Source: Eledone cirrhosa
Lineage: Eukaryota
Length of the DNA: 64,000 nt
Assembly (NCBI GenBank): GCA_964016885.1
Contig: OZ024759.1
Location: forward strand, 35,402,001-35,466,000
Reading direction: 5' to 3'
Shown here: positions 43,301-46,300 of the stretch, in pieces
Layout: every line of letters starts with the position of its first letter
Numbering within the stretch: the stretch's first letter is position 1
Translations under genes and position numbers: made by a program
Notes under the pieces: model-generated
What the model was told of the DNA's origin: nothing
The model's input: the letters and a program-made list of their open reading frames with translations, nothing else
The model's database searches: none

Positions 43301-46300
43301 CTACCAATAAATGCAATGAAGGAGTAACCAATCGTCCTTGTTATCCTTTCAATATATTCTACGCTGTATAGCTCTACACATCATCACAGAAGGATTTTGG
43401 AATGTTTTACATATTTTAAGTAAAATAAAGTACCTGTAATACACTGGATCAATAAAATAAAATACCTGTGATATGCTGAGGTCAATAAAATAAAATACCT
43501 GTGATATACTGGAGTCAATTTAATCGACTTCCCCTCCTCTAAAATTGTTAGTCTTGTGTCTAAATCTATTATCATTATTATATTATTATTAAAGTGAAAT
43601 ATATCCTTTCTTTTGTAGGTGCCGATTGTTTAACAAGTCAATATGATTGTCAGAAGACTTCCCCTAATTGTACACCCAGTGTAAAGGGCCTCTGTTACCA
43701 GAATGGCGTCTTTAAGTGTATTGAACCCAAAATGTGTAAGTGGTAAAGTCTATCTTGATTTTTATATCACTTTTTTACATGTGTCATTTTTTTTTAACCC
43801 TTTAGCATTTAAACCAACCATATCCGGCCAGAATTCTCTCACCTCTTTCTGTTCAAATTGATCATAACTGGCTGCTTATACTTATGTTAAGGTATTGTTC
43901 TCAAAATAAATAAGATCAAAATCTTGTAGCTTTGATAACATGTGAGATAATTATGTGAGATAAAACCTTTACTCTATATTTACTATTATATTGTCACACT
44001 AATGTAAATGTTAAAGGGTTAAAGCAATGAATGAAGTTGAATTGTTACAGAGTTTAACCCTTTAACATTTACATTACTCTATATTTACTATAGTATTTTC
44101 ACAGTAAAGGCTTTACCTCGCATAATATTTACATTACTCTATATATACTATTGTATTTTCACAGTAGAGGCTTTACCTCACATAATATTTACATTACTCT
44201 ATATATACTATTGTATTTTCACAGTAGAGGCTTTACCTCACATAATATTTACATTACTCTATATACTATAGTATTTTCACAGTAGAGGCTTTACCTCACA
44301 TAATATTTACATTACTCTATATACTATAGTATTTTCACAGTAGAGGCTTTACCTCACATAATATTTACATTACTCTATATACTATAGTATTTTCACAGTA
44401 GAGGCTTTACCTCACATAATATTTACATTACTCTATATTTACTATAGTATTTTCACAGTAGAGGCTTTACCTCGCATAATATTTACATTACTCTATATAT
44501 ACTATTGTATTTTCACAGTAGAGGCTTTACCTCACATAATATTTACATTACTCTATATACTATAGTATTTTCACAGTAGAGGCTTTACCTCACATAATAT
44601 TTACATTACTCTATATTTACTATAGTATTTTCACAGTAGAGGCTTTACCTCGCATAATATTTACATTACTCTATATATACTATTGTATTTTCACAGTAGA
44701 GGCTTTACCTCGCATAATATTTACATTACTCTATATATACTATTGTATTTTCACAGTAGAGGCTTTACCTCGCATAATATTTACATTACTCTATATTTAC
44801 TATAGTATTTTCACAGTAGAGGCTTTACCTCGCATAATATTTACATTACTCTATATATACTATTATATTTTCACAGTAGAGTCTTTACCTCGCATAATAT
44901 TTACATTACTCTATATATACTATTATATTTTCACAGTAGAGGCTTTATCTCACATAATATTAAATCTACGAGATCTTGATATTGTTTATTTTGAGAACAA
45001 AACCTTAACATCAGTATGAGTGGACAGTTATGGTTGGTTTGAACAGAAAGAGGTGAGAGAATTCTGGCTAGATATGGCCGGTTTAAATGCTAAAGGGTTA
45101 AACCGGCTGTATTTGGCCAGAATTCTCTCATTTGTTTTTCTTCAAACTGGCCATAACTGGCCGCTCATACTGATGTTAAGGTATTGTTCTCAAAATAAAT
45201 AACATCAAAATCTCGTAGATTTGATATTATGTGAGGTAAAGTCTTTACTGTTTAATGTGAAAATGTAATAGTAAATATAGAGTAACGTAAATGCATTAGG
45301 GAGATTAGGGGTATTTAATAATAATGAAATTATTGTGTACAGTGCTCAGGTGCACTACAACTCATCAAAGGTGCATGTATAGTACATAGAATAATGTACA
45401 AATGTCAGGAAAATAAACAGTGTATGAGTCATGATATAATAACAATAACAATAATGAAATATTGTGTACAGTGCCCAGGTGCACCACAACTCATCAAAAA
45501 AGTGCATGTACAGTACATAGGGCAATGCACAAACATCAGTAAAATGAAAAGTGCACGAGTCATGATACACACATGTGTGCATGTGTATGGAAGGGGTACA
45601 TCAGGTGTAGTTTTGGCGTATTTCGGGAAGCATGAGTGTCTTAAAGGATGCAGTGTCTCGGCAGCTAACAATTGACGCAGGCAGTTTGTTCCATGCTTCA
45701 GCAACTCTGAGCGTGAAAAAATGTCTACGAAAGTCATGGGAGCTGTGCTGTTTTCTGATCTTGTAGGCATGTCCACGTGTTAGACACATGGAGATCAAAG
45801 AGGTGCTCAGGGTTGCAATTGGCGAGATGGTTAAAAGGGGCTGGATTGTGGTGATGATGACTGTGGGCGTGATGCTAATGATGTTGATGATGATTGTCAG
45901 AGTGATGATGATGATGATGATTGTGATGATATTATTATTATTATTATTATACTAAAAATCATTATTATTATTATTTTTATTATCTTTTCCACAGGCCCTA
46001 AATGCTACCAACCAAATATATCATGCAGTAAAAAGGTCCCGGGCTGTAACCCAACCCAACTGATTGAAGTGTGCTTTATAGGGAACGAACTTTACTGTGT
46101 TGAAGACACACGGTTAACAACGCCACCACCAACAACAGCTGCTCCAACCACCACCACCACCACCACCACTACACCACCACCAACAACAACAACAGTGCCA
46201 CCAACAACAACAGTGCCACCAACAACAACAGTGCCACCAACAACAAAAGCTGCAGGAAGTAGGTTTCATTAATTCTAATTAGGTTTTAAAGCATTTGAAG

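Follow-up and report, generated by a model that had tools for sequence, protein, structure and literature searches.

In a stretch of 64,000 nucleotides (nt) of the Eledone cirrhosa contig OZ024759.1 (hereafter the window), searched on both strands and in all six frames, a coding unit of six cysteines sits on its own phase-1 exon ahead of a predicted beta-defensin-like domain. On sequence evidence, this unnamed module defines a coleoid family of likely secreted proteins that join the module to a defensin-like domain. We hold the anatomy alone, a module exon and a defensin-like exon in likely secreted proteins, with high confidence, and the family is likely a cephalopod variant, so far undescribed, of the host-defence design seen in big defensins. 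More specifically, the module may act, in a host-defence protein resembling big defensins, as an accessory head stapled by disulfides that binds a microbial surface or an enzyme, a proposal to which we give slightly less than an even chance. An earlier sequence-only reading of the window had described the module and missed its context, namely the beta-defensin-like domain that always follows it in predicted secreted proteins.

Module exons and their relatives

The modules fall in two convergent genes, P on the plus strand and M on the minus strand (Table 1). Four coding exons make up gene P, for a leader, a module, a second module with a linker, and a defensin-like domain (200 amino acids by exon lengths); gene M has a leader, a module and a defensin-like exon (100 amino acids). 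The three module exons (117, 264 and 108 nt, all divisible by three) each lie between an AG acceptor rich in pyrimidines and a GT donor; in an exon scan of both strands they have the strongest acceptors among 15 candidate rows, with phase 1 at both ends, and all introns of the two genes are phase 1. The exon of copy 2 extends to 46258, beyond its sixth cysteine, which ends at 46098. The first cysteine of each module is taken to be real because the upstream exon ends in T: the two leader exons preceding copies 1 and 3 both end in T, then GTAAGA (a phase-1 donor), while the last base of the copy 1 exon opens the first cysteine codon of copy 2. The end motif C-(Y/F)-x2-(G/N)-x2-(K/Y)-C-(I/V) is kept in every copy. 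The sequence-only reading is thus borne out by the sequence and the exon scan in the positions it gave for the three copies, in a first cysteine codon split by a phase-1 intron (the junction codon is Cys in 3 of 3), in the spacing C-x2-C-x6-C-x5/6-C-x5-8-C-x7-C, which all three match, and in the C-terminal motif.

A pattern of five of these cysteines occurs three times in the six frames, against a mean of 0.02 and a maximum of 1 in 100 block shuffles, a generous control, as the pattern was drawn from these same copies. With the cysteines held fixed, none of 2000 shuffles reached the score of copy 1 against copy 3; copy 2 is weakly tied to the other two in the same type of test (p = 0.02 and p = 0.016), and similarity at the DNA level is significant solely between copies 1 and 3 (z 5.0). 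Copies 1 and 3 thus share a clear homology that goes beyond their cysteines. When the window was searched with a profile built from six modules (its own three and three public ones, below), no further copy came up (next best E-value 0.16). One candidate, on the minus strand at 53594-53448, was rejected, as that profile does not recover it and it has no clean phase-1 acceptor. This open frame encodes six cysteines and contains a segment, CYENGVF, like the CYQNGVF of copy 1, with mostly synonymous differences; its tblastn match (E 0.049) and its Cys-fixed score (p = 0.0015, selected post hoc) could reflect chance or a decayed relic.

The window is rich in microsatellites whose translation gives cysteine-rich junk, so that the modules might be suspected to be chance cysteine runs in repeat-rich DNA. 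The splice sites, the junction codons and the shuffles speak against such an artefact, whose probability we consider negligible, and the public relatives have already refuted it.

Searching with a three-exon profile against 1,835,955,588 proteins (first HMMER search, E up to 0.001) gave four matches. One is an uncharacterized Octopus sinensis protein of 103 amino acids (LOC115223160, here P0003; E 1.8e-6), consisting of leader, module and defensin-like domain. Another is an unnamed protein of 203 amino acids from the cuttlefish Acanthosepion pharaonis (P0002; E 1e-7), with two modules, a linker of Thr, Ser and Pro, and a defensin-like domain. The other two, P0001 and P0004, were rejected as relatives: they are long proteins with Asp-rich C-D-D repeats that match part of the profile only. 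In a later profile search, 3 of 287 candidates matched, among them P0002 and P0003, whose scores are circular, both being in the profile; the third is an unnamed match of 75 amino acids (E 1.7e-5). Word-index searches among longer proteins with the module profile and with the defensin-like profile returned 12 and 3 candidates, none of which scored. The profile search suggested by the sequence-only reading therefore yielded two full-length cephalopod relatives and no named family. Its idea of a possibly lineage-specific domain stands in so far as the two named relatives, among which the 75-residue match does not count, come from coleoid cephalopods only.

The module precedes the defensin-like domain in all four proteins (genes P and M, P0002 and P0003). 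Gene M and its octopus relative share 21 of 35 residues in the module and 28 of 38 in the defensin-like exon, in the same order, and the O. sinensis module has all six cysteines with the spacing 2-6-5-5-7. Among the six modules, pairwise identity ranges from 7/34 to 21/35 residues. The second, third and fifth gaps barely vary, the Cys5-Cys6 gap being 7 in all six; a Pro stands one or two residues before Cys4 in every module, and between Cys5 and Cys6, positions 3-4 are occupied by a pair of polar or Gly residues with hydrophobic ones on either side. A literature search found no description of the module or of the layout and no mention of LOC115223160, most subscription papers, including the original studies of cephalopod venom and SSCR proteins, lying outside its scope.

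Fold of the module and of the C-terminal domain

No Pfam-A family was found for the module in any of six exons, two full proteins or five alignment members (the E limit was 10, although most matches above E 0.1 are lost to the HMMER filters), and PDB sequence searches gave no significant match, only Zn2Cys6 proteins at E 0.07-0.6. The claim that the module belongs to no known family is upheld to this extent. Its misfit with EGF is confirmed too: the EGF spacing ranges used, with their close C4-x-C5 pair, fail at three of the five gaps in five of five modules. An inhibitor cystine knot was considered and rejected, the consensus CX3-7CX3-8CX0-7CX1-4CX4-13C (PMC4942781) failing at gaps 1 and 4 in all five six-Cys modules.

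The six cysteines presumably form three disulfides per module. AlphaFold predicts a beta-hairpin between Cys5 and Cys6, in agreement with the C-terminal hairpin proposed by the earlier reading, both for copy 2 without its first cysteine (3 sequences, mean predicted local distance difference test score (pLDDT) 67; strands 25-28 and 31-35) and for the mature O. sinensis protein (7 sequences, mean pLDDT 62; strands 23-27 and 30-34). With the five-Cys copy 2 model, a weak query lacking the first cysteine, the fold search gave nothing at Z of at least 2, and Foldseek gave only matches at E >8; the N-terminal half of the module matched no fold in searches with these low-confidence models, and ESM Atlas had no usable match for copy 1 alone. 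Structure prediction, also suggested earlier, has thus delivered the hairpin and no significant fold match, from weak queries.

The same reading named no family for the module and did not weigh two near fits in spacing, those of LU and Zn2Cys6 proteins. The module could be a truncated LU or three-finger domain. In a CD59-type LU domain, cysteines 3, 6, 13, 19, 26 and 39 give gaps of 2-6-5-6-12 and the pairs 3-26, 6-13 and 19-39, a closed set of six (PMC4839075). Module gaps of 2-6-5/6-5 to 8-7 fit the first three, whereas the fourth is 5-8 against 6 in CD59, and the fifth, invariably 7, compares with 12. Leu or Val before Cys5, an aromatic residue after Cys5 in five of six modules and Ile, Val or Met after Cys6 resemble the residues of three-finger proteins at these places, and in the five-Cys model residues 2-3 and 13 are predicted to be strand or bridge. 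However, LU domains are recognised by ten cysteines ending in CC-x4-CN and by a division into two exons, the intron falling at the tip of loop 2, and single LU domains require the 7-8 bond for folding (PMC6600238). The module has no cysteines 7-10, no such end and no such intron, and no LU protein appeared among the PDB sequence or fold matches (weak tests, with low-confidence models). We regard a cut-down LU domain as distinctly unlikely.

Alternatively, Cys3 to Cys6 may form a disulfide-directed hairpin or EGF-like half (pairs 3-5 and 4-6), with a separate Cys1-x2-Cys2 bond. A P-C-x-N segment, resembling EGF, stands ahead of Cys5 in two modules, and the hairpin is predicted in both models. 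The module could take the I-III, II-IV pairing that defines the disulfide-directed hairpin fold in a sea star peptide (PMC11891777). On the other hand, no such protein is found among the matches, apart from two NELL2 entries containing EGF (Foldseek E 8-10), and strands at 23-27 and 30-34, judging by their limits, would put Cys5 and Cys6 staggered on opposite faces of the predicted hairpin. The necessary Cys-x2-Cys disulfide is, moreover, strained. This arrangement seems to us unlikely; it shares with the LU reading a predicted Cys4-Cys6 bond, and the two differ elsewhere.

A third possibility is that the module binds metal like the fungal Zn2Cys6 cluster and has no disulfides. In the PDB sequence searches LAC9 (E 0.073) scored best, followed by CBF3 subunit B (E 0.21), and four of the five gaps, as well as the Pro before Cys4, fit the consensus CX2CX6CX5-12CX2CX6-8C (PMC5542705). 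Yet these E-values are not significant, the consensus fails because the Cys4-Cys5 gap is 5-8 and not 2 in five of five six-Cys modules, there are 0-1 basic residues between Cys2 and Cys3, and the predicted signal peptides suggest an oxidising secretory path. We consider metal binding of this kind highly improbable. It is possible, and we propose it tentatively, that the module is instead a new three-disulfide fold, carried by a mobile 1-1 exon that was joined to a defensin exon in coleoids, and that these proteins form an unrecognised chimeric class of trans-defensins.

The C-terminal domain has a C-C-C-C-CC array, ending in C-x4/5-CC, in all four proteins, with spacings of 8-3-11-4-0, 15-4-12-5-0 and 15-3-14-4-0. 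The domain is predicted to be beta-defensin-like, with a three-stranded sheet modelled in the mature O. sinensis protein (strands 48-51, 58-61 and 70-74; block pLDDT 69-83). Among 48,161 chains, the fold search reached a Z of at least 2 for two only, both with weak scores: helianthamide (Z 3.0, root-mean-square deviation 3.1, 42 aligned residues, 24% identity) and the C-domain of an oyster big defensin (Z 2.1, deviation 3.2, 40 aligned residues). Both of these are beta-defensin folds. In ESM Atlas, three of the five rows listed contain defensin families; the top cluster, at 0.87, has Defensin_beta on 17% and Inhibitor_I68 on 12% of its members. With the two-domain model, Foldseek listed two alpha-defensins at E of about 9 among 11 rows, and a closer comparison of these 11 chains gave no match. 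In the cuttlefish protein (residues 146-197), we observed a seventh cysteine after the CC pair and, by eye, an I-D that precedes I-C4 by six to seven residues, a trait of the cephalopod big defensins of Table S1 in PMC7203481 also.

Given two cysteine-rich domains side by side, the module could be a decayed duplicate of the defensin-like exon, making the proteins double- or triple-defensins. An ESM Atlas cluster, GLL11, with Defensin_beta on 94% of its members, lies at 0.81, and a pairwise profile alignment of the two C-termini has a probability of 18%. Against this, of ten Cys-fixed cross-scores one reaches p = 0.035, the others falling at p = 0.13-0.81; a CC pair is missing from the module, for which just two strands are predicted. 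Descent of the module from the defensin-like exon is therefore not supported by the sequences, and we find it quite improbable.

A proposed role in host defence and other possible functions

Under the host-defence proposal, the module exon would have replaced the hydrophobic N-domain of a big defensin by shuffling at the phase-1 intron. Exon shuffling of a defensin exon with other leaders is itself a published hypothesis (PMC7203481). The product would be a secreted, probably glycosylated, near-neutral protein in a secretion such as mucus, whose two or three heads might bind a specific target, a microbial surface or an enzyme, and act by multivalent binding instead of charge-driven membrane lysis. 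We infer secretion and glycosylation from the sequences; sequons occur in all three modules of the window, at differing positions. Net charges are +1, -1 and 0 for the modules, +3 and +1 for the defensin-like parts and -4 for the mature O. sinensis protein. With proteins so close to neutral, or acidic, lysis of membranes by charge is unlikely; big defensins themselves span anionic to cationic (PMC7203481).

Several observations weigh against this proposal. Pfam finds no defensin family in the proteins or exons, Foldseek with the two-domain model has no match at E 0.001, and the ESM Atlas scores are all below 0.9, which makes them a lead only. The C1-C2 gap is 8 or 15 here and 5 in cephalopod big defensins (counted in Table S1 of PMC7203481). 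The N-terminal half of the module is modelled with low confidence (residues 1-17 of the mature O. sinensis model have pLDDT <50), and one module of six, the first of the cuttlefish protein, has five cysteines as annotated. The P0002 record has no leader, and a Gly in that module aligns with the Gly obtained by reading through the end of the window intron; its start is likely mis-modelled. In the 2 kb upstream of gene P and of gene M there is no kappaB-like site that would support immune induction, and the window holds 3 such sites against 6.3 expected. Finally, magnificamide, of the helianthamide group of amylase inhibitors, is reported to be without antimicrobial activity (PMC6835510), and a defensin fold therefore does not imply host defence.

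This last point leads to one of the two main functional rivals, in which the proteins would be two- or three-headed inhibitors of digestive or prey enzymes, or salivary or venom components, like helianthamide. The tick carboxypeptidase inhibitor, made of tandem defensin-like domains, provides a model for such a role. The best fold match is an amylase inhibitor, the top ESM Atlas cluster includes the Inhibitor_I68 members mentioned above, the net charge is low, and octopus salivary glands contain unnamed short secreted cysteine-rich proteins (PMC7693380). However, PDB sequence searches gave no match to helianthamide or to any solved inhibitor. The word "defensin" is absent from the main text of four papers on cephalopod saliva or venom (bioRxiv 10.64898/2026.04.09.716377, PMC12607849, PMC7656900 and PMC7693380), and neither the locus identifier nor a six-residue motif from gene M turned up in the supplement rows covered of PMC7693380, PMC10138644 and PMC12607849, which give few sequences. 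We judge an inhibitory or salivary role to be unlikely.

The other is a reproductive coat glycoprotein, belonging to egg jelly, spermatophore or sperm. The model is provided by vertebrate sperm defensins whose tails are O-glycosylated, and the mucin-like linker of gene P has a counterpart of Thr, Ser and Pro (16 of 31 residues) at the same place in the cuttlefish relative. Gene M and the O. sinensis protein lack the linker, sequons stand at different places from one module to the next, and two of the three public modules have none, all of which argues against a coat role; we hold it to be improbable.

A host-defence role would be of consequence in cephalopods. A 2020 paper reports that neither homology search nor immune challenge revealed a cephalopod defence peptide (PMC7551771), and only unannotated canonical big defensins were found in the group in PMC7203481. 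Genes of the P and M type are a second, distinct defensin-like layout, present in octopus and cuttlefish, and would be, if the proposal holds, candidate defence effectors in a group with few known. They also bear on the question whether defensin exons recombine with new leaders at a conserved phase-1 intron, which the bivalve cases of PMC7203481 did not show. Should the module prove to be a new fold on a mobile exon, the route by exon shuffling that has been proposed for the origin of beta-defensins would have a living example in it. With about 36 residues, it is cheap to synthesise and solve, and may be a new small scaffold.

The locus and its comparison with known systems

Table 1. Features of genes P and M, in window coordinates
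Feature	Position	Strand	Description
Gene P, TATAAAAG box	40126..40133	+	120 nt before start codon; likely TATA box
Gene P exon 1, coding part	40246..40321	+	25-codon hydrophobic leader, likely signal peptide
Gene P exon 2	43619..43735	+	Module copy 1, cysteine gaps 2-6-6-7-7, phase 1-1
Gene P exon 3, 5' part	45995..46110	+	Module copy 2, cysteine gaps 2-6-6-8-7
Gene P exon 3, 3' part	46111..46258	+	Mucin-like linker of 49 residues, 25 of them Thr and 13 Pro
Gene P exon 4	46906..47051	+	Beta-defensin-like, C-x15-C-x4-C-x12-C-x5-CC, then stop
Gene M, TATAAAAG box	62208..62215	-	About 130 nt before start codon; likely TATA box
Gene M exon 1, coding part	62010..62085	-	25-codon hydrophobic leader, likely signal peptide
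Gene M exon 2	60305..60412	-	Module copy 3, cysteine gaps 2-6-5-5-7, phase 1-1
Gene M exon 3	58791..58907	-	Beta-defensin-like, C-x8-C-x3-C-x11-C-x4-CC, phase 1-1
Gene M last exon, probable	56845..56995	-	Completes split TAA stop codon

The TATAAAAG box has 6 matches in the window against 3.3 expected, of which 2 precede genes P and M; it is their position alone that is suggestive. The acceptor of gene P exon 4 is phase 1 with a weak pyrimidine tract. The acceptor of the probable last exon of gene M is weaker than several others in the interval; P0003 ends at the residue position where gene M exon 3 ends, and AATAAA signals lie at 56854 and 56845, about 140 nt past the split stop.

The remainder of the window consists of microsatellite, minisatellite and SINE-like (short interspersed element) DNA, together with a multi-exon gene of synaptotagmin type with C2 domains on the plus strand (about 11158-27752). 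An exon of this gene at 24440-24561 matches synaptotagmin-3 and -1 (E 2e-07), and from its motifs we take it to resemble synaptotagmin-12. Minisatellites occupy 18444-23285, 47261-50137, 59028-60275, 44063-44961 and 62598-63642 (units of 37/77, 70, 48, 60 and 49 nt), several of them within introns of genes P and M; the 70-nt array begins about 160 nt after the gene P stop and resembles a reverse-strand array at 12999-13420. By eye, a long inverted repeat (42070-42260) lies just before an AT microsatellite in the first intron of gene P. A SINE-like element recurs (e.g., at 45316-45800, 51885-51500, 25030-25960 and 35730-36290), opening with a run of AAT that leads into a conserved head; some copies have an internal 61-nt tandem expansion. 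A possible decayed reverse-transcriptase fragment of a long interspersed element (LINE) was seen by eye on the minus strand at about 51400-50900.

Among known systems, the big defensins of horseshoe crab, bivalves and cephalopods are likewise secreted and built of two parts, the second being a six-Cys beta-defensin-like domain, and their genes share with those of beta-defensins a phase-1 intron on the 5' side of the cysteine-rich exon (PMC7203481). Such an intron lies directly 5' of the cysteine-rich exon in both window genes, a likeness of little power, as all their introns are phase 1, and the C-terminal six-Cys domain likewise ends in CC. The family differs in that the hydrophobic, cysteine-free N-terminal domain that big defensins carry is absent from all four proteins, which have one or two six-Cys modules instead, and in that there is no prodomain with a dibasic site, the first module cysteine following directly on the 25-codon leader; some members have a mucin-like linker, which big defensins do not. 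It thus resembles big defensins in design and is not a member by two defining features, and O. sinensis has a big defensin as a separate protein, with a hydrophobic N-domain and an array of 5-3-13-4-0 (Table S1 of PMC7203481).

Helianthamide and magnificamide, the sea anemone amylase inhibitors of beta-defensin fold, give the best, if weak, fold match for the C-terminal domain, but they are single-domain peptides without an N-terminal module and show no sequence match here. The nearest ESM Atlas clusters are those of the tick carboxypeptidase inhibitor (I68; 0.87) and avian beta-defensin 11 (0.81), proteins of about 100 amino acids with twelve cysteines. Both domains of each are defensin-like; in the present family, unlike in such tandem proteins, the first domain is not detectably defensin-like. 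With the LU domain, the module shares phase-1 introns; of the gaps between the first six LU cysteines (2-6-5-6-12), its own spacing of 2-6-5/6-5 to 8-7 fits the first three. It differs in having six cysteines only, no CN end and one exon instead of two. The direct relatives are the O. sinensis LOC115223160 and A. pharaonis proteins, database predictions without name or domain, which repeat the layouts of gene M and gene P, respectively.

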